18,609 bases of DNA from contig JAJRZD010000067.1 of NCBI GenBank assembly GCA_024275415.1, positions 1 to 18,609 of the forward strand. The letters run 5' to 3'. How positions within the stretch are numbered: position 1 is the stretch's first letter; each line of letters begins with the position of its first letter. The stretch is from an archaeon. GTDB lineage: Archaea; Asgardarchaeota; Thorarchaeia; Thorarchaeales; Thorarchaeaceae. The position numbers and the translations under genes were made by a program. Below the pieces are notes generated by a model. It was not told the DNA's origin, searched no databases, and was given only the letters and a program-made list of their open reading frames with translations. This document shows, in pieces, positions 3,206-16,377 of this stretch.

Positions 3206-4597
3206 ATGGCCCCAGACAAAAGCGTACGAACAAAGAAAATGCTCCAGTTGATGTTCCAAGAGTACTATCGAGTGCATCATGACACAATAGACATCCCTCT
3301 TCGGATACAGAATAGAGAGTTTGGGTTGGAGAACTGGGACTTCAGCTGGATTTGCAAGAAACGAAAGGAAGTACATGAAGACGGGAAAGAGAACTGGGTA
3401 GGATGCGGGCGAAGTGGTCGTTCTTTCGTGAATCTACTCAAATGCCCTCATTGTGGTGCCCCTGGACTGCAAGTCACACGGTGGTCACGCCACATCGGAT
3501 ACCGCACACGCGACCACCTTCTAAATGACCTTGTCAAGACAGTCCCTCACAGCATCTATCACTCGGCGGCCTTCTATAGCGTACCCGTTGCACGATCTAT
3601 GGCAGAGAAGAAGTGGCAGGGCGCAGAGATTGTATTTGATATTGATGCAGACCATCTAGAATCACCCTGCACCGAAAGGCATGATGTATGGCAATGCACC
3701 AATAGCGCGTGCGGGGCCACAGGTAGTGGATCCCATCCTGACAACTGTCCGGATTGCGATGGCACCACGTTTAGAGCACTGAAATGGATTTGTGACGAGT
3801 GTCTAACCGCAGCTAAAAAGGACACAATGAAGCTATATGACAAATTCTTGACTGGGCATTTCGGATTGGATTCGGACAAGATCCAACTCAACTACAGCGG
3901 ACACCGTGGATACCATGTACGTGTGCGTGACCCCATGGTCTTCAACCTTGATTCGAACGGCCGGATGGAGCTTGCACATTACATCTCTGGCTTTGGAATG
4001 AATACAAGCATAACCACAGACGGATATCTCAGGGTAAAGCCTACTGGGGATTTACGAAACTGGCAGATGCCATCAATCGCAAGGAAGATTGCTGATACCA
4101 TGATTGAGTTCATCAACTCGATTGATGTATATCAAGGAAAGGAGCCTTGGGTCAAGAGCTTGAAACTGTATCGGGAGGATGCTATTGCAGGATTGAAAAT
4201 GAACCCTCCCATTTTAAGTGCGAAGGTGAAGAAAGTAGGCCCCAAGTACTGGCAGGAGATAGCCAATAAGTCGGTTCTACTCTATGGTGTCGATATTGAT
4301 CAACCAGTGACGACCGACATACACCGAGTTATCAGATTGATAGGCAGCCTCAATGGGAAGACCGGCTTCGCTGTCACCGAGCTCACACGGGACGCCCTGA
4401 CTGACTTCAATCCATTATCAGACTCTGTCGTCTTTAATAAGGGAACCATACAAATCTCGATACCTGAACGGGGTATAACCGTACCAGAAATCACGATAGA
4501 TGGGGACACTTATGGACCATTCAATGGTTCCATAGAGACTCTACCTTCCTCGACTGCGGTGTTCCTGCTGTGCAAGGGGATGGCATTCATTGAATAA
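3206..4597 (+). CDS. priS: DNA primase catalytic subunit PriS with two Cys4 insertions
   Basis: REFG, RHIGY, YHSAAFY, FDIDAD (DxD at aa 145/147), YSGHRGYH, IDQPVTTDIHRVIRLIGSLNGKTG. Confidence 0.96.
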   Translation: MAPDKSVRTKKMLQLMFQEYYRVHHDTIDIPLRIQNREFGLENWDFSWICKKRKEVHEDGKENWVGCGRSGRSFVNLLKCPHCGAPGLQVTRWSRHIGYRTRDHLLNDLVKTVPHSIYHSAAFYSVPVARSMAEKKWQGAEIVFDIDADHLESPCTERHDVWQCTNSACGATGSGSHPDNCPDCDGTTFRALKWICDECLTAAKKDTMKLYDKFLTGHFGLDSDKIQLNYSGHRGYHVRVRDPMVFNLDSNGRMELAHYISGFGMNTSITTDGYLRVKPTGDLRNWQMPSIARKIADTMIEFINSIDVYQGKEPWVKSLKLYREDAIAGLKMNPPILSAKVKKVGPKYWQEIANKSVLLYGVDIDQPVTTDIHRVIRLIGSLNGKTGFAVTELTRDALTDFNPLSDSVVFNKGTIQISIPERGITVPEITIDGDTYGPFNGSIETLPSSTAVFLLCKGMAFIE

Positions 4598-5228
4598 GAT
4601 TGGCTATGACGATATTCGAGAGCTGTGGGAAGACGAAAAGAACCACGAGAAACTCCAGTATCTGGATGACCTGAAACTGAGCTTGATGACCGATTACCTC
4701 TCGAATATCCGCAGGCTGCTTGCCGAAACCCCCTCTGGCAATACGCTTCAAGTTGACCTGCTGAAAGAGGAAGGAGTGAACGTCGAGTTCATGATTAAGG
4801 ATTTGCTCCTGATGCGACGAAACAAGATCCTCTTTCATGTGCTCAATGACGAGAAGATGTCCGGAAACCTAACTCTCGCTGAAGAAGAGTTCTATAATCG
4901 ACTGCGTCGAGGACTGGAAAGCCATACCCGATTCGTCAATGAGATACTCACAGGGAATCCAGCCCCCACAATGAGGATACCTGACTCGACTGCATCTGAG
5001 GAAAACGTAGACAGTCTGGGTGACGAGGTAGAGGATTCTTCTCGCGAGTATATCATGGTTCGGTTCTTGCGTCCCGTTAAAGACACGATTATGGGACTGG
5101 ATGAGATCGTCTACGGACCATTCGAAAAGGAGGATGTCGCTACTATTCCCACTGCCAATGCGAAAATTTGGCTTAGAAACGGTACAGTCACAAGGATTGT
5201 ACAGACCGAGAACAAACGTGGTGATTAG
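4590..5228 (+). CDS. gins15: GINS complex subunit, Gins15/Gins51 type (helical A domain followed by beta B domain)
   Basis: N-terminal W..EK....LQ.L, DLLLMRRNKI, LTLAEEEFY; C-terminal VRFLRPV...MGLD...YGPFEKEDVATIP..NA; TTG start overlapping the priS stop by 8 nt. Confidence 0.9.
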   Translation: MNKIGYDDIRELWEDEKNHEKLQYLDDLKLSLMTDYLSNIRRLLAETPSGNTLQVDLLKEEGVNVEFMIKDLLLMRRNKILFHVLNDEKMSGNLTLAEEEFYNRLRRGLESHTRFVNEILTGNPAPTMRIPDSTASEENVDSLGDEVEDSSREYIMVRFLRPVKDTIMGLDEIVYGPFEKEDVATIPTANAKIWLRNGTVTRIVQTENKRGD

Positions 5229-5507
5229 ATGGATTCAGAATCTATCAGAACTGAACTGAGGAGTATTTCTAACTCGGTGCAGTGTGATCGGACATCTCTC
5301 ACAAACGAGTTCGAGAAACTGCTCATAGCGACCACTAATGTGCTACGACTGACCGATGGGCAACAGGGGATGCTTGCAACCCTCCAAGGAAACCCCCAAG
5401 ATTTACACAGATACCTTCTGAATCTCATTCGCCGGTTACAAGAGATGGTAATCAGCTCCAGCGACCGAACGATCAGGGCGCTTGAGACTTTACAAGGCAG
5501 TGTCTAA
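5229..5507 (+). CDS. Hypothetical helical protein (92 aa)
   Basis: ATG directly after the gins TAG; GGTGA Shine-Dalgarno-like motif at 5220-5224; amphipathic helical pattern; no family recognised. Confidence 0.65.
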   Translation: MDSESIRTELRSISNSVQCDRTSLTNEFEKLLIATTNVLRLTDGQQGMLATLQGNPQDLHRYLLNLIRRLQEMVISSSDRTIRALETLQGSV

Positions 5508-5547
5508 GTGTACAAGTAGAATCGGAAAGCTCTAAAGGTGATGCTCA

Positions 5548-5751
5548 TTGAGTGTAAGTATGCTTTCGGGTCGGCAGTATGTGTTGATAATCGCGGGCAT
5601 CGTGGCTATGGCGCTTGGTTTGACAGGTAGCATGACATATCCCCTATCAAGTGAGGACGTTTCGAATATCCTTCTCTATGAGATGCTAGTCGCCTCTGGA
5701 ATCATCGGCATCCTCGCTCTCATAAATAATAGAGGCCTTGAAGAGGACTGA
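5548..5751 (+). CDS. Hypothetical small membrane protein with two predicted TM helices
   Basis: GGTGA at 5537-5541, 6 nt before TTG (alternative ATG 5560); two hydrophobic segments YVLIIAGIVAMALGLTG and ILLYEMLVASGIIGILALI. Confidence 0.6.
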   Translation: MSVSMLSGRQYVLIIAGIVAMALGLTGSMTYPLSSEDVSNILLYEMLVASGIIGILALINNRGLEED

Positions 5752-5835
5752 CCTCATATTTCGTCCTTTTCACAGCAACACACCACTGGCACAACTATCG
5801 TGATTTTCTATATTTGACTGAAAAATCAATTATCT

Positions 5836-5850
5836 GCAAACTTTTAATAT
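5836..5850 (+). promoter_or_regulatory. Putative BRE/TATA of the hdr operon
   Basis: GCAAA-CTTTTAATAT in the AT-rich 158-nt gap, about 60 nt before the hdrC ATG. Confidence 0.5.
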
Positions 5851-5909
5851 GAGATTCATTCCTGCTCAGTCATTCAGCCCTTTCACTAAATAATCGGTGG
5901 TAAGCGACC

Positions 5910-6452
5910 ATGACCGAAACGGATGACAAAGCCGGACAGCCGGCCATACTCATAGATCCCATTGACATGTCAAAGCTCGACTCTGGATTTAGAAGCGAGA
6001 TTAAGAATATGCCAGATGGTGACGAGATTAATGCTTGTTTTGCATGTTCTACCTGCACAGCAGCGTGTCCTATCGCAAACGTCTGGAAATACAAGCCTCA
6101 TCAACTTATCCGTATGATCCTCCTAGGCATGCGTGAGGAAGTCCTGTCCTCGGAGGAGATATGGCTCTGTTTGACCTGTTTTCAATGTCAGGAACGGTGC
6201 CCCCAGAAAGTGCGTGTGACTGACATCTTCTTTGATTGTAAGAACTTGGCTGCAGAAGAAGGCAAGATTCCTGAGAACATCAAAGGTCTTGCAAGGGAAC
6301 TCGTAGAGAACGGTCAACTCTACCAAGTCACAGCTGATTGGGAACGAGAAGATATGGGTCTTGAGCCAGAAGTACCTGGTCTTTCTACTGATGGGATTAA
6401 GGCGATTCTGAAGGGCACTAGGACTGGAAAGATTACTGGAGGGGAAGAATAG
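5910..6452 (+). CDS. hdrC: Heterodisulfide reductase subunit C
   Basis: CFACSTCTAACP and WLCLTCFQCQERCPQKVRVTD; HQLIRMILLG. Confidence 0.95.
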   Translation: MTETDDKAGQPAILIDPIDMSKLDSGFRSEIKNMPDGDEINACFACSTCTAACPIANVWKYKPHQLIRMILLGMREEVLSSEEIWLCLTCFQCQERCPQKVRVTDIFFDCKNLAAEEGKIPENIKGLARELVENGQLYQVTADWEREDMGLEPEVPGLSTDGIKAILKGTRTGKITGGEE

Positions 6453-7319
6453 TTGCCAACGTACAACCTTTACATGGGATGCAGTGTCCCCGCGAACTAT
6501 CCGAATTACGAGGCTGCCATGATCAAGGTGGCTGAGGCTTTTGGTATGGATTTTGATTATATGGAAGGAGTCGCATGTTGTGGAAGCCCTAACCTACGAG
6601 CAATTGATCACATGGGTTGGCTTACAGTCAATGCAAGAACCCTTGCCATCGGCGATAAGAACGGCCATGATATCGTGACACCCTGTAACGGATGTTTTGC
6701 ATCGCTCAAAGACGCATACCACCTCCTAAAACATGACAAGGAGTATGTTCAGAAGGTCAACAAGATCTTGAAGAAGGAGGGGCTGGAATTCAAGGGGGCT
6801 GCAAAACCTCGTCATTTTGTTGAGGCACTCTATACAGATGTCGGTATAGACGAGATTAAGAAGAAGGTCACAAAGCCCTTGGATGGTGTGGGCATCGCCA
6901 TACATTATGGTTGTCATGTGACGCGTCCTCACGATGTGACCGAGTTCGATCCGGTAATCTTGCAGGAGCTTGTCCAAGCAACAGGAGCGACCGTGATTGA
7001 CTATCCGTTGTGGAAGCAGTGTTGTGGTGCTACAGTGTTGCCTGTGAATGAAGGCATCGCAATCAGACTGGCCCGCGACAAGCTCAAATCAATGAAGGAC
7101 GCAGGGGCTGTGTTTGTTACTGTGGTATGCCCTGCTTGTGGGAACCAGCTCGACCTACAGCAGCTGGGCCTCAAGGAGTCATATGGTGAGGAGTATAACC
7201 TTCCTGTCTTGTTTTATCCTCAAATACTCGGACTAACGATGGGACTGGATGAAGATGCCGTCGGACTATCAATGAATCGAGTTGCAGCCGGTCCAATTCT
7301 GAATCATTTGGCCGAATGA
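6453..7319 (+). CDS. hdrB: Heterodisulfide reductase subunit B
   Basis: Two complete CCG domains: C10...C42C43...C78xxC81 and YGC154H...C190C191...C226xxC229; TTG start directly after the hdrC TAG. Confidence 0.95.
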   Translation: MPTYNLYMGCSVPANYPNYEAAMIKVAEAFGMDFDYMEGVACCGSPNLRAIDHMGWLTVNARTLAIGDKNGHDIVTPCNGCFASLKDAYHLLKHDKEYVQKVNKILKKEGLEFKGAAKPRHFVEALYTDVGIDEIKKKVTKPLDGVGIAIHYGCHVTRPHDVTEFDPVILQELVQATGATVIDYPLWKQCCGATVLPVNEGIAIRLARDKLKSMKDAGAVFVTVVCPACGNQLDLQQLGLKESYGEEYNLPVLFYPQILGLTMGLDEDAVGLSMNRVAAGPILNHLAE

Positions 7320-7331
7320 GGTGAATAGGTA

Positions 7332-8582
7332 GTGTCTGATTCGGTCCTTATCATAGGTGCAGGGGTCGCAGGGCTCACGGCAGCAGTGGAGCTTGCTGAT
7401 TCTGGAGTCAAAGTCACGGTGGTGGAACGATTAGCCACAGTCGGAGGCAATGCTCTAGATCTGTACAAGGCATTTCCTACTGACGATTGTTTCTACTGTT
7501 TCGAAGGGAATCGCTGGAGGCCTGGGATCAGAAAGTGTTTCTATCGTAGTGTGTTGCTTGATCAACCTAACATCGACCTCAAGCTCAGTTCGCAGGTCAA
7601 AGAGATCTCAGGGGCTTCTGGTAATTTCGATGTGAGGATTGAGGTTGGATCACAATACGTCGATTCCAAGAAGTGCATCATGTGTGGTCTCTGCATGGAG
7701 AAGTCGCAGGCATTCTCCTTAATCTCTCCACAATGTCAGCCGCAAGCGGTAGTCTATGACCCAGAAAAAGTAGACGAAGGTGCAAGGGTCGCTGCTGAAG
7801 AATGCCCGACCAAGGCAATAGATCTCGATGCACAGCCATCGGAATCAACTGTGAAGGTATCCGATATCATAGTCGCGACTGGCTATCATGAGATGCAACC
7901 CATCGCAATGGATGAGTATGGCTATGGGCGATATACGAATGTCATCACACAGCTCGAGCTGGCAAAGATCATCGACCCTAATGGTTCATCGAATGGCGTC
8001 CTAGTCAGACCTTCTGACGGAGCTCCAGCAAGTCGAGTTTTAATGGTCCAGTGCGTCGGCAGTAGGGATGAGAACTACTACCCCTATTGTTCAAAGATTT
8101 GCTGTATTTTTGCATTGAAACATGCGAACATCCTCGTGCAGGAACGAGAAAATGTTTCCGTAAGCGTGGTCTACATGGATATCCGAACTTACGACCGACA
8201 TGAGAGATACTATCGTGATGCCAGAGAGGCAGGAGTCGAGTTTGTGAGAGGGCGGATAATGCGGGTAGAGCCCCATAGTGAGAACGAATTGTCCGTCATA
8301 GTGTACGATTCGTTATTGGACAAATACCTCAAGTATACTGTTGACCTATTGGTGTTATCATCTGCGCTCGAACCCCCAAAAGGAGGGAGTGCGATAACCA
8401 GTGCATTGAACCTGAATATGGCAAATGGATTCATTGCCCCTTTTGACCCCGTATCTGAAGAGGAGGTTGTTGTTGGTGAACACATCTATGCTTGTGGGAC
8501 AGCGCTGGGTCCTGCTGAAGTCCCGGAGAGCGTGACTCAGGCCAGGGCCGTGGTATCGAAAATCCTTCAGAGGAGGAAATGA
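7332..8582 (+). CDS. hdrA: Short HdrA-family flavoprotein (QmoA-like size, 416 aa)
   Basis: GAGVAG FAD motif, LYKAFPTDDCFYC, IIVATG, QCVGSRD...YCSKICC, YMDIRTY; GAGGTGA SD at 7318-7324; GTG start. Confidence 0.88.
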   Translation: MSDSVLIIGAGVAGLTAAVELADSGVKVTVVERLATVGGNALDLYKAFPTDDCFYCFEGNRWRPGIRKCFYRSVLLDQPNIDLKLSSQVKEISGASGNFDVRIEVGSQYVDSKKCIMCGLCMEKSQAFSLISPQCQPQAVVYDPEKVDEGARVAAEECPTKAIDLDAQPSESTVKVSDIIVATGYHEMQPIAMDEYGYGRYTNVITQLELAKIIDPNGSSNGVLVRPSDGAPASRVLMVQCVGSRDENYYPYCSKICCIFALKHANILVQERENVSVSVVYMDIRTYDRHERYYRDAREAGVEFVRGRIMRVEPHSENELSVIVYDSLLDKYLKYTVDLLVLSSALEPPKGGSAITSALNLNMANGFIAPFDPVSEEEVVVGEHIYACGTALGPAEVPESVTQARAVVSKILQRRK

Positions 8583-8586
8583 TCAA

Positions 8587-10752
8587 TTGACGGATTCAAA
8601 GAAGTCAGCTGTGATATTATGCACCTGTGGCAAACAACTTGGACTGGACTATGGCCATCTCTCTTCACATCTTGAGAAGCATGAACTAGTTTCCTCAGTG
8701 ATTGTACATGATACATGTTGCCAGCCTGATGGGCTTGACAGCATCGTAGAACTTGTGGACTCAAATGATGGTCGTCTTGTCATCGCTGCTTGCACCAACC
8801 AGAAGATACAGCCACGGATTGATATGTATCTCAGAACAAAGAATGTGGATCCCTCGAAGATACGCTATGTGAACATTCGTGAACAATCCGCATGGGTGCA
8901 TGGTGACAAATCAGAGGCGACTCTGAAATCTCTCGACATGATCAAAGGAGCGGTTGCTGCATCAAGCATCTCTCAGCCATTGCATGTCCAGAAAAAAACG
9001 GTTCCCCCTCATGTCACTGTTGTCGGGGGCGGGATAGCTGGCTTGGAAACTGCACTAAGCTTGAGCAATCTTGGCTACGAAGTTGTATTGGTCGAAATCA
9101 CAGACACCTTGGGTGGGCATGTGCTGAATCTCCCAGTCGTGGCGCCCACCGGGAAATCGGGCGCTGAGGTTATGAAGAGCCGCTTAGATGCGATTGGGAA
9201 GGATAATCGGATACAGGTGATGACCAACACCTATGTGAGATTCTTCGAGGGCGAGATGGGCAATTTCACTGTTCACTATACCTCCGATGGAAAAGATGGG
9301 ACACTTCATACCTCCGCAGTGGTCATGGCCACTGGTTTCAAGGAATTCAAGCCTGTGCAGATGGACGAATACCGCTATGGCAAGAACCCTGATGTACTCA
9401 CTCAATACGAACTGTCCCAGATGATTACCGCTGGCGACATCAAGAAGCCTTCCAGTGCTCAGGATGTCAAAGAGGTCGTCATGGTTCAATGTGTGGGTAG
9501 CAGGTCGGAGGACTATAAACGCGACTGTAGCAAGCTCTGCTGCACCTTTGCCATCGATAACGCGATAGAGCTCAAGGAGCGATTGCCTGATGTCAATGTC
9601 CGAGTCGTATACATGGATATCAGGGTGCCCTTCGAGAATGAGATGATCTACAAGAAGTCGAGGGAACTAGGTGTGGACTTCATCCGCGGTAGGGTCAGCA
9701 TGGTCTGGGAGAACGATGGGCAGACCCGTGTGAAGATATACGACTCACTCATGAATCAGTATTTCGAGGTTCCAGCGGATCTCCTCGTCCTCTCCTCAGC
9801 AGTTCTTCCCTCTGACGGACTTGCCGAACTAGGGGAAACCCTCGGATACATGATTGAGGACGATGGTCATATCAAAGAGTTATACGGGAAGCTCCGGCGG
9901 AATGAAACAAGACGACGCGGAGTAGTAGCTGTAGGAGCAGCTACCCGCCCTCAATTCGTCTTTGAGGCAGTCACAGACGCACAGGCGGCATCTTTAGTAC
10001 TCCACAATGAGCTGCAAGGCGGAGCAATTGAAACATTGGCGCGTGGTGCAGTTCTTGAAGTGGATGACTGTGTCGGCTGTAGTCTCTGTGCACAGCAATG
10101 CCCTCGGGGGGTTCCTCTTATGATCGAGCAGACCGAGTCCGAAGAGATTAATCCTGAACAGAAGCTTATCTTCAAGGCATCGATTGACACCCTGAACTGC
10201 CATGCGTGCGGTGTCTGTCAGAGCCTTTGCCCCTCCGGTGCGACACAGCTCAACTTTATCAGTAACGAACAGCTCTGGGCCGAGATTACAGCAACCTTAG
10301 AGAATGCTGGGCCAGACCGTCCCATCACATTGTGCTTTTACTGCGAGGAGTGTGCAGTATCCACTATTGACATCGCTGGGATTCGAAAGATGGAATATCC
10401 TGCTACAACACGATTGGTTCCTGTCCCCTGTGCCGGACGTGTTAGCATTATAGACATCCTCAAGGCGTTTGAGAATGGTGCTGGTGCAGTCATGATTGCA
10501 GCGTGCGAAACCGACCGCTGTCATGTAGGCGGAACAGGCAACGAGATCGCTCAGGTACAAGTGGATGTTGCAAGGGACATCCTGAACGCGATTGGATGGA
10601 AAGGTGCGCGTGTGGATATGTTCAGGATGTTCAGTGCAGAACCCCAGAGATTCATAGATGCCATAAGCGAGATGACACGTCGTGCATCTGAATTCGGTCC
10701 TACTCCAGTACACAATGGGGAGGCCGGGAAGTGGATGGAGGTCGTCGAATGA
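8587..10752 (+). CDS. hdrA: HdrA-MvhD fusion (QmoB-like architecture, 721 aa)
   Basis: N-terminal CTC...CC...IAAC...VNIREQSAWVH; GGGIAG; QCVGSR...CSKLCC; C-terminal 2x[4Fe-4S] (CVGCSLCAQQCP, CHACGVCQSLCP); MvhD domain from about aa 580 (FYCEEC...YP...VPCAGRV...AACETDRCH); TTG start. Confidence 0.9.
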   Translation: MTDSKKSAVILCTCGKQLGLDYGHLSSHLEKHELVSSVIVHDTCCQPDGLDSIVELVDSNDGRLVIAACTNQKIQPRIDMYLRTKNVDPSKIRYVNIREQSAWVHGDKSEATLKSLDMIKGAVAASSISQPLHVQKKTVPPHVTVVGGGIAGLETALSLSNLGYEVVLVEITDTLGGHVLNLPVVAPTGKSGAEVMKSRLDAIGKDNRIQVMTNTYVRFFEGEMGNFTVHYTSDGKDGTLHTSAVVMATGFKEFKPVQMDEYRYGKNPDVLTQYELSQMITAGDIKKPSSAQDVKEVVMVQCVGSRSEDYKRDCSKLCCTFAIDNAIELKERLPDVNVRVVYMDIRVPFENEMIYKKSRELGVDFIRGRVSMVWENDGQTRVKIYDSLMNQYFEVPADLLVLSSAVLPSDGLAELGETLGYMIEDDGHIKELYGKLRRNETRRRGVVAVGAATRPQFVFEAVTDAQAASLVLHNELQGGAIETLARGAVLEVDDCVGCSLCAQQCPRGVPLMIEQTESEEINPEQKLIFKASIDTLNCHACGVCQSLCPSGATQLNFISNEQLWAEITATLENAGPDRPITLCFYCEECAVSTIDIAGIRKMEYPATTRLVPVPCAGRVSIIDILKAFENGAGAVMIAACETDRCHVGGTGNEIAQVQVDVARDILNAIGWKGARVDMFRMFSAEPQRFIDAISEMTRRASEFGPTPVHNGEAGKWMEVVE

Positions 10753-13010
10753 GTTCGAGTACAGCTGTAAAGGAGATCGCCCCTAAACGAAAGCGTATGA
10801 TGGACATGATTCTCATCCTTGGAGGCCTGAAAGAGGAGGCTGCCATCCCCCTCAGCAGGGTGAACGAGGAGATTGCGAATCTTAAGAAAGAGATCGAACC
10901 GCTTGTTTCGGAGATACTGGCATTCCCTAGTGCATATTATCAACGGTTCTATGAGGTTTCAACAAAGACCAATCTTCCAAGCCAGATTACTGACAAGGGT
11001 ATTCTGACCGAGGCCATCCTGAATATCGAGAAGGCGCTTGAGTTCGGCGAATCTGCTGGACTGTCCGCCCTCAAAGATGCACTGAAAGAAGTGCTCGAAT
11101 CGATGAGTGCGAAACCAGAGGAAAACGAAAAAGTTTCGGTCGATCTGAATCACGTACTGAAGGGGCTTCCAAAGACCACATCGCAGATCTTGGATGCAGT
11201 ATCAGTCCTTGAAGAAACCTCCATGAAGGAACAGGAGCAAGCAAAAGAAGAACTTGACTCTCTTATGGATGGATTCACTGAAATCATCTCAGATGTTGAC
11301 TTAGACGCCGACACCCTTTTAGGAAAACTCCAAAAGATTGGGACAAAGACCCGCTACGGCCCGTTTCTCCGTGTTGCAGCACAACTAAAACGAGGGAAAC
11401 GAGAAGAACGGATAGATGATGAACGTTTCAAGACACTTGTCACAAAGAATCTTGTCACTGAGATGCGACGTGGAATCATTATGTTCATTTTGAACAAGAT
11501 GGGCTCAAAGACCACACCGCAAATAGCTGGATTGTCTGGTCTTTCGCCTCAGGACATCCAGAGTGCCATTGTCAGTATGATAAGCCGTGGTGAAGTAGAG
11601 ATGGTTGGCATTGATGGGAATGCCCCCGTTTTCGCCAAGGTCATCGGGAAGGCGCCAGATAGCACACTTGTCCTAAAACGAGCCCTCCAACAGCTTCGTA
11701 GTGTACTGAAGACTATGGACGATAAGACAAGACACTTGGTCGAAAACCCACTGAATGACCTTGAAACTGCCTATAGTCGGTTGCAGATGCTTGGTGAATA
11801 TGATGAGCCGCTTATCGCAGAGCCAATGAAGACATTACAGGATATTGGGACGAAAGTGGCTGAGGCTGCTATCAAGTCCCACGCTGGTGATGATTCGGAT
11901 GAGCTACGTCTCTTGGTGTCTGCAGGTCTTGAGGCATTCGCACGATTCAGGCTGAAGATAGCATTGGAGAAAGGTCCGCATCTAGTGTCTGGAGTCAATG
12001 TATATGGTGAGAAACTCGACGAGTCCACCTACCAGCAGATTATGGATTCCTATCTGAACAACGAGCTTGAGCGCGGAACTATCCTTATCCTGATTCGAGA
12101 GCTTGGTGCGATGACTACAAAGGACTTGGCGGAGCGAACCGATATCCCACCGGATCGGATATTGCAACACCTACTCCGGATGAAGCGGGACGAACTCCTG
12201 ACAATTGCTGGCGAATCTCACGGATACATCCTGTATGATGTCCCTCGAACGTTGACCGAGGCTGAGGTCGCCATTCAAACTATTAGCTCGCTCGCTCTTC
12301 AGACAGCCGAAGCCACAAAGGATTTGGCCGATACGGTATCTGATCTTCAACCAAGTTCAATTGGGAAGTTGACCAGCGCCTTAGATACCCTTTCCAAGGC
12401 ACGCGACAAGATGGGGAAGATAGAGATTGGTGGCACAGTGATTGCAAAGGATCTCATTGCCAATGTCGAGGACAAGATCAAGTCTGCAGTAGCGATGGGA
12501 TATCGCACACGGGCAAGGATTCCCAGTACTCGCCCCAAGGTCACCATAGAGGATCTCATGGACGTTGACGTTCCCAGTGTGATTGATGAGTACAAGGGCA
12601 TGATGGGCTATGCTCCATTGCTCGGTTTTGGTACTATCGAATGGGTACAGTCCAAGTGTCTTGGGTGCAAGTCCTGCGAGATTGCCTGCCCTGAGAATGC
12701 AATCGAACTTAAACCATCCATCGATGTCCCTCAGTTCTTTGAGTTCTCTGACGAGACTCTTGATTCATTGCCTGTGAACAAATCCATCTTCTACAGAACC
12801 GTCAGGAACCTTGCGACTGTTAAACCATCCACCAAAATTGCATTAGATGAAGATAAGCCTGGTTTCGGATCAGTTGAAGTCGACTTGTGGCTATGCGTGG
12901 GCTGTCGTACTTGTGTGCGACGTTGTCCTGGGACTGATGACGGCGCTCTTGAACTCATCCTCAAGTGGAATCTCCCAGAGGTCATTCGCCAGATTACGGC
13001 ACAGAATTAG
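10749..13010 (+). CDS. Uncharacterised 753-aa protein: helical regions, two winged-HTH modules and a C-terminal 2x[4Fe-4S] ferredoxin
   Basis: ATGA overlap with the upstream stop and GGAGGT SD; wHTH-like segments GIIMFILNKMGSKTTPQIA...GEVEMVG and GTILILIRELGAMTTKDLA...DELLTIAG; CLGCKSCEIACP and CVGCRTCVRRCP. Confidence 0.85.
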   Translation: MSSSTAVKEIAPKRKRMMDMILILGGLKEEAAIPLSRVNEEIANLKKEIEPLVSEILAFPSAYYQRFYEVSTKTNLPSQITDKGILTEAILNIEKALEFGESAGLSALKDALKEVLESMSAKPEENEKVSVDLNHVLKGLPKTTSQILDAVSVLEETSMKEQEQAKEELDSLMDGFTEIISDVDLDADTLLGKLQKIGTKTRYGPFLRVAAQLKRGKREERIDDERFKTLVTKNLVTEMRRGIIMFILNKMGSKTTPQIAGLSGLSPQDIQSAIVSMISRGEVEMVGIDGNAPVFAKVIGKAPDSTLVLKRALQQLRSVLKTMDDKTRHLVENPLNDLETAYSRLQMLGEYDEPLIAEPMKTLQDIGTKVAEAAIKSHAGDDSDELRLLVSAGLEAFARFRLKIALEKGPHLVSGVNVYGEKLDESTYQQIMDSYLNNELERGTILILIRELGAMTTKDLAERTDIPPDRILQHLLRMKRDELLTIAGESHGYILYDVPRTLTEAEVAIQTISSLALQTAEATKDLADTVSDLQPSSIGKLTSALDTLSKARDKMGKIEIGGTVIAKDLIANVEDKIKSAVAMGYRTRARIPSTRPKVTIEDLMDVDVPSVIDEYKGMMGYAPLLGFGTIEWVQSKCLGCKSCEIACPENAIELKPSIDVPQFFEFSDETLDSLPVNKSIFYRTVRNLATVKPSTKIALDEDKPGFGSVEVDLWLCVGCRTCVRRCPGTDDGALELILKWNLPEVIRQITAQN

Positions 13011-13052
13011 CATGTTCCCATGCGACAGTTCAGTATACAATCAGTGGCATTT

Positions 13053-13068
13053 CAAAAGGGACTTATAC
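13053..13068 (+). promoter_or_regulatory. Putative BRE/TATA for the acyl-CoA dehydrogenase
   Basis: CAAAAGGG-ACTTATAC about 48 nt upstream of ATG 13116. Confidence 0.45.
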
Positions 13069-13115
13069 TCTGTAACCTAATGACATTCATTGAGATTTTA
13101 GGCTGGTGAATGTTG

Positions 13116-14315
13116 ATGGTCGATTTCGCATACACGGATGAACAACTTGCTTTGCAGAAGAAGGCACGGGTCTTCACCCATGAGTACATACTGCCCTATG
13201 CCTCATACTATGACAAGACAGGCGAGTTCCCTCTGCCTATCATAAGAAAGGCGTGGGACGCAGGTCTTATGAACTTGGCAATACCCAAAGAATACGGCGG
13301 GCCCGAGCTGGGGCTAGTCGAGGCATGTATCGTGGTGGAAGAGTTTGCTTCAGGATGTGCAGGAATGACCACTAGCATCTTTGCCAACCAGCTTGGCCCA
13401 GAGCCGATTATGATAGCAGGGTCTCCTGAACAGAAGGAAAAGTACCTTCGACCACTGACCGAGGCGCCAAAGCTCGTTTCTTTCGCATGTTCGGAGCCTG
13501 GGATGGGTAGTGATGTAGCAGGAATCAAGACTGCTGTGGAAAAAGATGGTGACGAATATGTCATCAATGGCTCCAAGTTCTGGATCACGAACGCTCCCTA
13601 TGCAGACTACTTTACAGTCTTTGCAAGCCTTGACCCCAGCAAGAGGCACAAGGCACTCTGTGCCTTTATTGTCGATGCTGACGCACCAGGAGTCAAGATT
13701 GGGCGTCCTGTTGAGAAAATGGGACATCGTGCATCCTCGACAGCATCAATAATGTTCAGGGATGCCCGAGTACCCGCTGAGAACCTTCTTGGGTCTGAGG
13801 GCGAAGGGTTCAAGATCGCAATGAAGACCTTTGCGTTGACACGCCCTGCTATTGCAGCATTCGCAACTGGGCTTGCACGCTCCGCCATGGAATATGCCCG
13901 AGAATATACCATGAAGCGGGATGCATTCGGCAGCAAGCTCAGAGAGTTCCAGGCAATCCAGTTCAAGCTTGCCGAGATGCTCATGAAGGTCGAAACCTCT
14001 CGTCTGCTCTATCTGAGGGCTGCATGGGCTGCTGATACCACTCCTGATGCGACCATTCCTGCAAGCATCGCCAAGGCTTTTGCCACTGATGCTGCGATGT
14101 GGTGTGCAAGTGAGGCACTCCAGATTCATGGCGGATATGGGTACATCGACCAATATCCTCTTGAGAAGATATTCAGGGATGCCAAACTCTATCAGATCTA
14201 TGAGGGCACAAGTGAGATACAACGGTTGATTCTTGGACGTTATGTGCTTGATGGGTACCAACCCGCCCGAGAAACACCTCCAAGATGGGCAGGGCAGAAG
14301 GCCCCTGACTTCTAG
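13116..14315 (+). CDS. acd: Acyl-CoA dehydrogenase, MCAD-like
   Basis: SEPGMGSDVAGIKT, NGSKFWITNA, KMGHRAS, FQAIQFKLAEM, QIHGGYGY, QIYEGTSEIQR (catalytic Glu in YEG). Start set by GGTGA at 13105-13109; alternative ATG 13110. Confidence 0.95.
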   Translation: MVDFAYTDEQLALQKKARVFTHEYILPYASYYDKTGEFPLPIIRKAWDAGLMNLAIPKEYGGPELGLVEACIVVEEFASGCAGMTTSIFANQLGPEPIMIAGSPEQKEKYLRPLTEAPKLVSFACSEPGMGSDVAGIKTAVEKDGDEYVINGSKFWITNAPYADYFTVFASLDPSKRHKALCAFIVDADAPGVKIGRPVEKMGHRASSTASIMFRDARVPAENLLGSEGEGFKIAMKTFALTRPAIAAFATGLARSAMEYAREYTMKRDAFGSKLREFQAIQFKLAEMLMKVETSRLLYLRAAWAADTTPDATIPASIAKAFATDAAMWCASEALQIHGGYGYIDQYPLEKIFRDAKLYQIYEGTSEIQRLILGRYVLDGYQPARETPPRWAGQKAPDF

Positions 14316-14563
14316 GAATCTCTGAAATCTGACAATCCTAAATGGTGGGGACTGGTGATTGTAAGTAGAAATATGTGACCGCAGTACCTGTCAGCTGTTT
14401 CTCCCTCGTCCATCAGAAGAAATACTAAACTCAGTACCTTCTTCTTGGTATGATAAAAGGTCGTCAAAGAAGGGCATACTGCATGGCGCCGTATTGCACG
14501 GAATTCTACATTTCCTTCCTCCGTTTTGACATTCTCATCTCATATGGGGCTCTCAGGCAAATC

Positions 14564-14761
14564 TCATACTTGTGTTTGAAGAACACGCATCTTCAGAGAA
14601 AGGGATGTCCTTACCACGCAGACCTTTGAATCATTGTTGTGCACCAAGACGTTTGGCTGCATCTTGTCGCTCTTGGCTGCTTTCATTCAACATGATTACC
14701 GTGACCTCATCCCAATGCCCCCTACAAGCACATCCCTTTCTCAAACCAATACCGAGTATGA
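14564..14761. repeat. Nested inverted-repeat element (candidate structured RNA or MITE-like relic)
   Basis: Perfect 13-bp IR GAGAAAGGGATGT (14596-14608) / ACATCCCTTTCTC (14730-14742), enclosing 10-bp and 9-bp bulged helices and enclosed by a 7-bp IR (14564-14570 / 14755-14761). Confidence 0.55.
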
Positions 14762-14826
14762 CTCCATGCCTTCAATATGTGCTATGGTTTTCCTCCATTA
14801 TCATGCTCAAATATACGTATGATATA

Positions 14827-15363
14827 TCACGAGATGTTACTGTCTACAGACCAATACTGTCCGTTCAATGGTATGTAGACGAATAGGTCTACTTTTGAGG
14901 TGTCGAACCTTCCTTTCTCGTCAAGCACGGCCTCATCAATATGGACTGCTAGCACCTCAGCGACAAAGAGGTCGTGTACACCGACATTGATGACATGGCT
15001 CGTCTTGCATTCGATATTGATTGGGCATTCGTCAATCATTGGAGCATCGACTTTCGATGCCTGAACCGCGGTGAGTTTCATCTCACTGAATTTGTCGTAA
15101 TCCCGTCCTGACTTCGACCCACAGAACTTCATGGCATCGAAGAGGTTCTTTCCAGGGACATTAAGCACAAACTCACCTGCGTCCTTGACTAGGCCGTGAC
15201 TGAACCTGTTAGGTCTGATTCCTATAGCGACACTCGGAGGTTCACTGCACACATTTGCCACCCATGAAAGAGTGATTATGTTTGGACGTTCCTTGCCTTT
15301 CACACTCAGTAATATTACCGGACACGGCACTATGGCTGTCGTACCTTTCATTTGTTTCTTCAT
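14827..15363 (-). CDS. Flavin reductase-like / flavoredoxin family FMN-binding protein
   Basis: PCPVILLS, NIITLSWV, SEPPSVAIGIRPNRFSH, EFVLNVP, FCGSKSGRDYDKF, PMIDECPINIECK, GVHDLFVAEV; start M at 15363. Confidence 0.9.
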   Translation of the reverse strand: MKKQMKGTTAIVPCPVILLSVKGKERPNIITLSWVANVCSEPPSVAIGIRPNRFSHGLVKDAGEFVLNVPGKNLFDAMKFCGSKSGRDYDKFSEMKLTAVQASKVDAPMIDECPINIECKTSHVINVGVHDLFVAEVLAVHIDEAVLDEKGRFDTSKVDLFVYIPLNGQYWSVDSNIS

Positions 15364-15387
15364 GATGTGTGTGTATATGGTTGGCCC

Positions 15388-15418
15388 GTTAAGAAAATGT
15401 CGCAGCATCATACTTAAG
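15388..15418. promoter_or_regulatory. Divergent promoter region between the flavin reductase and the SerA-like gene
   Basis: Minus-strand TTTTCTTAAC (15397-15388) ends 25 nt before ATG 15363, consistent with a leaderless mRNA; plus-strand CTTAAG (15413-15418) lies about 48 nt before ATG 15466. Confidence 0.4.
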
Positions 15419-15465
15419 TTAGAGCAACATCGGCGAAGGACTATCAACTTCAGAGGGTTGTCATA

Positions 15466-16377
15466 ATGGTACGTGTGCTTATCGCAGATCCTATTGCAGA
15501 ATCGGCTATCCGAAAGATGAAAGATGCTGGACTGGACATTGTCCTTCGAGATGCTAGTTCAGACGGCCCCATCAAAGACCAGATAAAGGGCTTCGACGGT
15601 GTTGTTGTACGGAGCGCTACAAAAATCACTCGTGAGGTCATCGAGTCCTCAGATACTCTCAAGGTCATAGTCCGTGCAGGAGTCGGATTGGACAATGTCG
15701 ACCAAGAGGCAGCGAAGGAGAAAGGCATCACTGTGATGAACACTCCCGAGGCGCCCACTGTCAGCGTGGCCGAGATGGTACTTTCCTTGATGTTTGCCCT
15801 GTCTCGGAACATCACTCGCGCTGACAGCTCCATGAAGGACGAACGCTGGGAGAAGAAGAAACTTGCTGGAACCGAACTCTGGCAGAAGACACTGGGCATC
15901 ATCGGGTTCGGCAGGATTGGCCAAGAAGTCGCCAAGAGAGCCAAGGCACTTGAGATGAATGTTCTTGCTTATGACGTTGTCGACATCACTGAAGCCTGCC
16001 GCACATACGGTACACAGAAGGCATCTATTGATGACATCATTTCAAAGTCCGATTACATCTCGCTTCATGTACCGCTCCTTCCCCAGACGAAAGGGATGAT
16101 TGGGTCGGCCGAATTCGAGAAGATGAAGCCTACTGCATTTTTGATAAACACATCCCGTGGTGGTGTCGTGGATGAGGCAGCGTTGGTCGAGGCACTTGAC
16201 TCTGGCAAGATTGCAGGTGCCGCGCTTGACGTGTTCGAAACCGAACCCCCTACCGATTGGAGTCTAATCAAGCATCCAAAACTGATAGCTACACCCCACA
16301 TCGCCTCGTCCACTACAGAGGCACAGGCCCGTGTAGGTGATTTGACCGCATCCAAACTTATCGAGGCTCTCAAATAA
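15466..16377 (+). CDS. serA: D-3-phosphoglycerate dehydrogenase-like D-2-hydroxyacid dehydrogenase without ACT domain
   Basis: VRSATK, RAGVGLDNVD, GIIGFGRIG, INTSRGGVVDE, DVFETEP, TPHIASSTTEAQ; 303 aa. Substrate specificity cannot be determined from the sequence alone. Confidence 0.8.
   Translation: MVRVLIADPIAESAIRKMKDAGLDIVLRDASSDGPIKDQIKGFDGVVVRSATKITREVIESSDTLKVIVRAGVGLDNVDQEAAKEKGITVMNTPEAPTVSVAEMVLSLMFALSRNITRADSSMKDERWEKKKLAGTELWQKTLGIIGFGRIGQEVAKRAKALEMNVLAYDVVDITEACRTYGTQKASIDDIISKSDYISLHVPLLPQTKGMIGSAEFEKMKPTAFLINTSRGGVVDEAALVEALDSGKIAGAALDVFETEPPTDWSLIKHPKLIATPHIASSTTEAQARVGDLTASKLIEALK

Follow-up and report, generated by a model that had tools for sequence, protein, structure and literature searches.

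What does a set of heterodisulfide reductase (Hdr) genes do in an archaeon when the operon encodes a large additional protein and no recognised electron-donating enzyme? This question is raised by an 18,609-nucleotide stretch of DNA from a member of the Thorarchaeaceae in the phylum Asgardarchaeota (GenBank assembly GCA_024275415.1, contig JAJRZD010000067.1), the whole of which we call the window. At 5910-13010 it carries five co-directional genes in the order hdrC, hdrB, a short hdrA, an hdrA::mvhD fusion and a fifth gene, whose 753-residue product we refer to as X; no gene for a hydrogenase, Fdh, Flx, Apr or Etf was detected in a Pfam scan of the window proteins. We hold it to be probable, with moderate confidence, that the products of the five genes assemble into a single soluble iron-sulfur flavoprotein complex of the Hdr type, with X as its fifth subunit. 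Judged from sequence comparisons, X most likely sits at the donor or exchange position of this complex rather than serving as a regulator, and the operon points to an energy-conserving enzyme.

A preliminary description, made from the sequence alone, had called the five genes tightly coupled, and the list of open reading frames (ORFs) together with a direct reading of the sequence bears this out: the successive spacers are 0, 12 and 4 nucleotides, followed by a 4-nucleotide overlap (ATGA) in which the ATG of X, at 10749, overlaps the stop codon of hdrA::mvhD. The genes, and the segments into which we divide X, are as follows.

5910..6452, + strand: HdrC-like protein, 180 residues; Pfam Fer4_8/Fer4_17, with two CxxCxxCxxxCP motifs (2x[4Fe-4S]) in the translation.
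6453..7319, + strand: HdrB-like protein, 288 residues; Pfam CCG in two stretches, 99 bits.
7332..8582, + strand: short HdrA (HdrA-S), 416 residues; Pfam flavin adenine dinucleotide (FAD) Rossmann fold and one Fer4; alignment to 5ODC.
8587..10752, + strand: HdrA::MvhD fusion (HdrA-L), 721 residues; Pfam Pyr_redox_2, Fer4 dicluster and FlpD/MvhD.
10749..11129, + strand: X residues 1-127, N-terminal helical segment; K13-R14 invariant in the family alignment, segment retained in a GltD-type variant.
11130..11993, + strand: X residues 128-415, cysteine-free middle with the first winged helix and a helical bundle; from the AlphaFold model and comparison with the variant P0208.
11994..12623, + strand: X residues 416-625, second winged helix, long helices and a low-confidence linker; from the alignment and the AlphaFold model.
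12624..13010, + strand: X residues 626-753 and the stop codon, 2x[4Fe-4S] ferredoxin domain; Pfam Fer4_7, eight invariant cysteines.

The first two products retain the cofactor motifs of soluble HdrABC. HdrC has both of its [4Fe-4S] motifs, and HdrB has the two CCG motifs for non-cubane [4Fe-4S] clusters: all ten cysteines that the preliminary description had noted can be read in the translation (C10, CC42-43, C78 and C81; C154, CC190-191, C226 and C229), with the spacing CX31-35CCX34CXXC occurring twice. The best PDB matches to the window Hdr proteins have E values of 1e-65 to 1e-78. All four Hdr-like proteins nevertheless score well under the curated equivalog cut-offs of NCBIfam, namely 104 bits against 160 for HdrC, 271 against 345 for HdrB, and 273-448 against 1100-1400 overall for HdrA; the best match of HdrA-L is HdrA2 (448 bits, cut-off 1100). 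Within the window genome (3.5 Mb in 127 contigs, 92.9% complete), the closest paralogues of HdrB and HdrC are an hdrC and hdrB at 54362-55758 of contig C73. At about 41-59 kb, that contig holds an Hdr island of its own, in which two HdrA genes of very large size (1166 and 1034 residues) accompany three hdrBC pairs.

The two HdrA proteins were each aligned against HdrA of Methanothermococcus thermolithotrophicus (5ODC). In a soluble HdrABC, one HdrA carries all four domains; here they are divided between two paralogues. HdrA-S covers residues 145-560 of the 5ODC protein and consists of the thioredoxin-reductase-like FAD core, the domains at either end being absent. It retains the equivalents of Cys194 and Cys197, the core [4Fe-4S] cysteines and the inserted ferredoxin domain, and C115, C118, C121 and C158 are invariant in its family alignment. 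In Thorarchaeota the inserted domain has ligands for one cluster only, whereas the Hel-/Lokiarchaeota orthologues have both motifs. HdrA-L comprises an N-terminal cluster domain, an FAD core, a C-terminal 2x[4Fe-4S] domain and an MvhD [2Fe-2S] domain (residues 582-704; Pfam FlpD/MvhD, 105 bits), with cysteines that are invariant in the family alignment. It lacks the inserted ferredoxin domain and the Cys197 equivalent, 'GKSGAEV' standing in place of Cys194/Cys197. The losses are therefore complementary, and they match the pattern on which HdrA heterodimers were proposed in anaerobic methanotrophic (ANME) archaea, where the N-terminal domain and Cys197 are likewise distributed over two proteins (Chadwick et al. 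2022, PMC9012536).

X belongs to no curated Pfam or NCBIfam family, the C-terminal Fer4 dicluster being its sole Pfam match over threshold. This domain contains the two CxxCxxCxxxCP motifs of a bacterial-type 2x[4Fe-4S] ferredoxin within a ferredoxin fold, separated by an insert of ~65 residues, and accounts for the only eight cysteines of the protein (C637, C640, C643, C647, C716, C719, C722 and C726), all invariant in the family alignment. Residues 1-620, upstream of the first cysteine (C637), make up a cysteine-free helical scaffold with two winged helices. In an AlphaFold model (mean predicted local distance difference test score 77), long helices are followed by two winged-helix modules, at about residues 224-298 and about residues 425-497 and each succeeded by helices, then by a conserved linker of low modelling confidence (residues 591-625) and the ferredoxin domain. 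The preliminary description had read the fifth gene as two winged helices plus a ferredoxin; the model has all of these, and Pfam confirms only the C-terminal Fer4 dicluster. Self-BLASTP gave no significant similarity between the two winged-helix modules, so that the duplication is visible at the level of the fold only.

Fold searches with the whole model recovered no specific known family. Foldseek found nothing in the PDB at E <= 0.001, its weak rows being multi-winged-helix proteins such as RPC62 and SelB. A wide VIA-align search returned (i) generic helical bundles, whose Z of at most 11 is not unusual for helical models; (ii) MarR/TrmB/Z-alpha winged helices with Z about 9; and (iii) for the ferredoxin domain, PsaC, PFOR delta and FwdF-type domains with Z 9-10. 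A protein atlas feature search with residues 1-620 returned solely the protein's own Thorarchaeota cluster (0.76), and in its own genome X has no paralogue; a molybdopterin enzyme on contig C110 matches it weakly, through a ferredoxin. We also considered that X might supply the ferredoxin domain lost from HdrA-L; this idea was unsupported, as a search of PDB sequences gave only generic Fer4 motif matches, with no special likeness to the inserted ferredoxin of HdrA. In a three-chain co-fold of HdrA-S, HdrA-L residues 470-721 and X residues 585-753, the score was not specific, as judged from a control in which chain 1 was replaced.

To follow X beyond the window, we searched 5.8 billion proteins, applied HMMER exhaustively to 1.84 billion cluster representatives, and examined 400 genomes of the phylum. 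About 250 relatives were found among the 5.8 billion proteins and, where the source is named, they come from Thor-, Hod- or Promethearchaeota. The HMMER search yielded one further full-length group only, at 23-26% identity and from Hel-/Lokiarchaeota, whose operon-encoded relatives of X are 20-25% identical to it. Of the 85 species in the family of the window, 84 encode full-length X, as do all seven species of three other Asgard families (7/7); in the two largest remaining families, with 135 and 31 genomes, it was found in none. On this distribution, X is a putative Asgard-specific subunit.

The gene order of the window (hdrC, hdrB, hdrA-S, hdrA-L, X) recurs in the Thorarchaeota loci. In the Hel-/Lokiarchaeota loci the order is hdrA-S, hdrA-L, X, hdrC, hdrB, with X between hdrA-L and hdrC, so the fifth gene is syntenic into these groups through a rearrangement, which bears on the synteny across Asgard and other archaea that the preliminary description had proposed to check. 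The two flavoproteins are closer to their counterparts in these operons than to any paralogue of the window genome: HdrA-S matches the Hel-/Lokiarchaeota HdrA-S with 339 bits (best paralogue 278 bits) and HdrA-L matches HdrA-L with 544 bits (best paralogue 409 bits). Because the association of X with the HdrA pair was kept through rearrangement and deep divergence, it is not mere conservation of gene order among Thorarchaeota. The conserved core is therefore HdrA-S, HdrA-L and X, with an accompanying HdrCB pair. The 5' part of the Hel-/Lokiarchaeota operon encodes, in addition, two HdrA-like proteins of 1000-1170 residues, a free MvhD and a 94-residue protein. In loci L032 (1-6558), L033 and L034, the HdrA-like proteins are of ~1150 residues, with MvhD, and of ~1010 residues, with two HdrA cores, and a free MvhD is present; the operon thus has three MvhD domains, and its 94-residue protein is coiled-coil-like.

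The natural variants of X are informative on what its parts may do. First, the ferredoxin part occurs by itself, as free-standing proteins of 160-161 residues homologous to X residues 617-745. In L052, from a Hel-/Lokiarchaeota-type genome that also has full-length X, such a gene begins 7 nucleotides after an HdrA-S-like (433 residues) and HdrA-L::MvhD-like (698 residues) pair, and in L051, from another Asgard family, the free homologue lies 1.4 kb from an HdrA-S/HdrA-L-like pair. Second, in seven of the 85 Thorarchaeota species the same operon slot is occupied by a GltD-type variant of 972-998 residues. In P0208 (L035), Fer4_20 and Pyr_redox_2 domains replace X residues 128-415, and the flanking parts are retained, with 44% identity over residues 1-127 (BLASTP) and 58% over residues 416-753. 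Modules of this GltD/NfnB type bind NAD(P)H, FAD and two [4Fe-4S] clusters. The insert of P0208 is closest (552 bits) to the GltD-like module of a 936-residue HdrA in an mvh-hdr cluster on contig C97 of the window genome, and on the strength of this resemblance GltD-like modules appear to be recurrent plug-ins of Thorarchaeota Hdr systems.

Because an NAD(P)H-flavin module of the GltD/NfnB type sits within X in these seven species, X seems to be itself the subunit on the donor side and not simply a stand-in for a donor. The absence of a recognised donor, as put forward in the preliminary description, thus holds for the window and does not extend to the family. The retained parts of X would make the contacts to the Hdr core and the middle would be the exchangeable, partner-holding part; residues 1-127, as they are retained in the GltD-type variant, probably serve as an anchor.

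Extending these observations to physical assembly, docking, electron flow and bifurcation, we infer the following arrangement. HdrA-S and HdrA-L::MvhD would form an asymmetric heterodimer in which each supplies the parts that the other is missing: HdrA-L would contribute the N-terminal cluster domain, the C-terminal ferredoxin domain and MvhD, and HdrA-S the Cys197-type ligand and the sole inserted ferredoxin domain of the pair. Because each HdrA would supply what the other has lost, the pair would constitute one complete flavin-centred electron junction, compared with two in the HdrA homodimer of methanogens. HdrC would connect this junction to HdrB as the high-potential branch, and the non-cubane cluster site of HdrB would reduce, or in the reverse direction oxidise, a thiol/disulfide other than CoM-S-S-CoB, the heterodisulfide of coenzymes M and B. 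The inserted ferredoxin domain of HdrA-S would serve ferredoxin. The two-cluster ferredoxin of X would prolong the iron-sulfur wire that runs through the HdrA pair; the most plausible site for this is the fused MvhD, the usual dock of hydrogenase or Fdh. The cysteine-free winged-helix scaffold would hold an exchangeable partner. The GltD-type variant, present in a minority of Thorarchaeota, would then be an NAD(P)H-dependent Hdr resembling FlxABCD-HdrABC, with its donor built in, and in the window version the donor or acceptor would be a separately encoded protein or ferredoxin.

Several points weigh against parts of this arrangement. Glu356 of 5ODC is replaced by Ala in HdrA-S and by Ser in HdrA-L, and Lys409 is retained in HdrA-S only, so that flavin-based bifurcation by the HdrA pair is plausible and not assured. 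X may dock at the MvhD side or at the side of the inserted ferredoxin of HdrA-S, and its winged-helix domains could still bind DNA. Finally, HdrB and HdrC of the Hel-/Lokiarchaeota operons are no closer to those of the window than the C73 paralogues are, the scores being about tied, and hence orthology with these operons is shown for HdrA-S, HdrA-L and X and not for HdrCB.

Among the other readings of the locus, the one that survives best is that a standard donor encoded in trans (MvhAG, an F420- or formate-dependent module, or a large HdrA paralogue) docks at the fused MvhD, which would make X a polyferredoxin-like wire to another enzyme on the output side, and not the donor-side adaptor. The window genome offers candidates in its [NiFe] hydrogenases, encoded at no fewer than three loci, and in a single molybdopterin enzyme and a single FrhB-like gene. 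Its Hdr-related inventory amounts to seven hdrBC pairs and about eleven hdrA genes, along with about 20 CCG proteins and eight or nine MvhD domains. The two very large HdrA-like proteins and the free MvhD of the Hel-/Lokiarchaeota operon fit this reading also, and X could extend the branch of the Thorarchaeota HdrA-S whose inserted ferredoxin is down to one cluster. However, the hydrogenases examined adjoin their own MvhD and, on C97, their own HdrABC: positions 4050-12986 of this contig (L054) encode MvhA, MvhG, MvhD, HdrA (597 residues), HdrB, HdrC and the 936-residue HdrA with its GltD/NfnB-like module, and on contig C46 an mvhA lies near a separate mvhD. The C97 cluster is, in itself, a canonical-looking hydrogenase-Hdr system that also has an NAD(P)H module. 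The standard MvhAG partner for which the preliminary description proposed to search is thus present, but with an MvhD and HdrABC of its own, and the window operon has neither MvhA nor MvhG. Furthermore, the GltD-type variant carries a typical input module within X. No canonical partner encoded elsewhere appears clearly to complete the window module, and we regard a trans-acting standard donor as unlikely.

The rest of the genome also bears on the substrate. Profile searches of the genome did not find McrA, ComA or DsrC, CoB biosynthesis not having been searched for, and the best match to AprA reached 49.9 bits against a cut-off of 641.75. On these grounds CoM-S-S-CoB, DsrC and adenosine 5'-phosphosulfate (APS) are unlikely substrates, in agreement with the earlier proposal of an Hdr complex acting on a non-standard thiol/disulfide.

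A further candidate partner is encoded directly downstream of X. The features in question, together with the next gene to be discussed, are as follows.

13051..13069, + strand: TATA box/B recognition element (TATA/BRE)-like element, ~40 nucleotides 5' of the start codon of the acyl-CoA dehydrogenase gene; conserved across four Thorarchaeota loci.
13110..14315, + strand: acyl-CoA dehydrogenase (ACAD), 401 residues, Bcd/AcrC-like; three ACAD Pfam domains.
14827..15447, - strand: Flavin_Reduct protein, convergent; Pfam.

The ACAD, whose nearest NCBIfam models are AcrC and cyclohexane-carbonyl-CoA dehydrogenase (both below cut-off), might be a redox partner recruited by X, linking the acyl-CoA/enoyl-CoA couple to the Hdr junction without Etf. 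Its gene lies 66-123 nucleotides 3' of X on the same strand in every one of the ~30 Thorarchaeota genomes with coordinates that were compared, and an orthologue of 72-89% identity is encoded in 77 of the 85 species. However, this adjacency is weak evidence, because the replication genes upstream of hdrC are equally syntenic in Thorarchaeota, and it persists in the GltD-type variants although the middle of X is replaced there. The ACAD is absent from the Hel-/Lokiarchaeota operons that keep X. In the otherwise variable X-ACAD spacer, the conserved TATA/BRE-like element suggests a separate, putative ACAD promoter, and an ordinary Etf route is encoded on contig C7 (EtfAB, with EtfA fused to a ferredoxin). 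As for a fusion of the two proteins, the single apparent case, a 1155-residue frame in G378 (L050, contig C151), is an assembly gap with a 102-base N run (34 X residues); such an N run is a trap for automated fusion detection. An ACAD acting through X therefore strikes us as rather improbable.

The C7 locus (30885-32946, L053) encodes EtfB and EtfA, the latter with an N-terminal 2x[4Fe-4S] ferredoxin, and after these a 577-residue protein that has no Pfam family.

A broader view would make X a docking hub and the HdrA heterodimer a modular bifurcating platform, the scaffold recruiting lineage-specific redox enzymes: the adjacent ACAD in Thorarchaeota, the NAD(P)H module in some species and the large HdrA/MvhD proteins in Hel-/Lokiarchaeota. 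This is speculative, and we give it a low probability. If it were true, neither Etf nor hydrogenase would be needed to couple, for example, enoyl-CoA/acyl-CoA or NAD(P)H with ferredoxin and an Asgard-specific thiol/disulfide.

Less probable still is that X is an iron-sulfur redox-sensing transcription factor, co-transcribed with its operon and binding DNA via the winged helices. The two winged-helix folds invite this reading, and source annotations of relatives read 'MarR/IscR family/ferredoxin'. However, the helix-turn-helix Pfam matches are weak and all under their gathering thresholds (HTH_24 19.6 against 21.9, Rrf2 17.9 against 30, TrmB 16.8 against 25.6), so that X is not placed in the MarR, TrmB or Rrf2 families. 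The protein is long, at 753 residues, and acidic (the net charges of Thorarchaeota members lie between -16 and -44), and its winged helices are not consistently basic. In Hel-/Lokiarchaeota its gene sits among structural genes, a flavoenzyme module can replace the first winged helix, and the ferredoxin part occurs alone next to HdrA pairs. We consider this function very unlikely.

Least credible of all is a QmoAB-HdrCB complex serving APS reductase in dissimilatory sulfur metabolism, which would agree with the sizes and domain layout of QmoA and QmoB, with the known QmoAB-HdrBC variants and with the 'type II' Qmo proteins of organisms without Dsr or Apr (PMC10504309), but is opposed by the low AprA score, by the failure of the search for DsrC and by NCBIfam, which places both flavoproteins nearest HdrA/HdrA2.

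The five-subunit Hdr-type complex that we favour can be set beside the systems it resembles. With the MvhADG-HdrABC of methanogens (5ODC, 8RVU, 9SFI) it shares the double CCG motif of HdrB, the HdrC dicluster, the HdrA FAD core with its [4Fe-4S] ligands and the MvhD [2Fe-2S] connector. It differs in that HdrA is split into two complementary paralogues, one of them fused to MvhD, in the lack of a hydrogenase in the operon, in the extra 753-residue subunit and in its scores below the equivalog cut-offs; Mcr and coenzyme M synthesis genes (McrA, ComA), moreover, were not found in the window genome. The tandem and fused HdrA proteins of ANME archaea (PMC9012536) have in common with it the complementary split of N-terminal domain and Cys197, as well as NfnB-like modules grafted onto Hdr components, whereas the part of that study considered here does not describe an X-type subunit, and the window operon is from an Asgard archaeon and has another neighbourhood. 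In QmoABC and QmoAB-HdrCB (PMC10504309), two HdrA-like flavoproteins of ~410 and ~720 residues occur, the larger with ferredoxin and MvhD-like domains, and HdrCB replaces QmoC. The likeness to QmoAB noted in the preliminary description thus stands for the architecture, which the window operon reproduces, and fails for the sequence, since both proteins are closest to HdrA/HdrA2; nor was a context of AprBA, Sat or Dsr found, and X is extra.

FlxABCD-HdrABC is the NADH-dependent Hdr of Desulfovibrio, in which an MvhD-type connector joins an NAD(P)H-oxidising flavoprotein module to HdrABC. The system is named in a report (bioRxiv 10.1101/826495) that also describes HdrABC as expressed without Mvh in Lokiarchaeon sediments. 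The GltD-type variant of X follows a similar logic, as far as it can be likened by description, with an NAD(P)H module feeding Hdr; unlike in Flx, however, the input module is of the GltD/NfnB type and inserted in X in place of FlxABC, and the window version is without such a module. Shape neighbours of X residues 129-502 in the ESM Atlas (TM-score 0.49-0.52, normalised to the target) include MvhD (FlpD) proteins with helix-turn-helix domains, which form uncurated clusters and pair a winged-helix module with an Hdr/Mvh connector. There, the winged helix is fused to MvhD itself, whereas in X a ferredoxin carries two such modules, and the likeness is a structural lead only.

What is already known, then, are the HdrABC chemistry, the idea of ANME-type heterodimers, the QmoAB-HdrCB-like architecture and the Flx-like logic; multiple and fused HdrA copies have also been reported from Thor- and Lokiarchaeota (PMC11237513). 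New, as far as the literature was searched, are the X subunit and the five-gene combination, of which no description was found; the possibility, raised in the preliminary description, that the operon had been characterised before was thus not borne out by that literature.

No group is known to be more closely related to eukaryotes than the Asgard archaea, and how these balance ferredoxin, NAD(P)H and thiols is central to models of a syntrophic metabolism based on hydrogen or acetogenesis. Asgard archaea have many Hdr paralogues and no methanogenesis, as illustrated by the hdrBC and hdrA genes counted above. An operon encoded in nearly all species of the Thorarchaeota family examined, with a lineage-specific adaptor subunit, offers an expressible target for the study of Asgard Hdr function and of the disulfide involved, and the GltD-type natural variant makes NAD(P)H a plausible donor to test first.

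The surroundings of the operon complete the picture of the window. Its gene content is archaeal, with genes for an exosome subunit, RNA polymerase L, TFS, PCNA, PriS and GINS upstream of hdrC and for eL15 downstream. The preliminary description had regarded the flanking ACAD and flavin reductase as belonging to the setting of the module, and both genes are indeed there, as their three ACAD domains and Flavin_Reduct domain attest. Both are probably neighbours of the module and not parts of it, the ACAD because it is absent from the Hel-/Lokiarchaeota operons and has a promoter-like element of its own. In L004 the flavin reductase gene is differently arranged, at a distance of about 7 kb, and in L003 none was present among the genes called within about 10 kb downstream. 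At 13551-20927 of L004, the ACAD gene is followed by genes for a cupin, a free MvhD (131 residues), an HD protein, an AsnC regulator, a JAB protein and RNase P subunits, and this block precedes those for eL15, a 2-hydroxyacid dehydrogenase and the flavin reductase. Compared with L004, the window at 14316-16377 is missing the block from cupin to RNase P, and the remaining genes are inverted.

A 92-residue upstream protein of Thorarchaeota is only 11-16% identical to the 94-residue Hel-/Lokiarchaeota protein, so this comparison yields no common sixth component. Closer to hdrC in the window, ~160 nucleotides 5' of it, is an ORF of 63 residues (5560-5751, + strand) with two predicted hydrophobic helices, and genes of 61-77 residues are called at the matching position in L003, L004 and L035.

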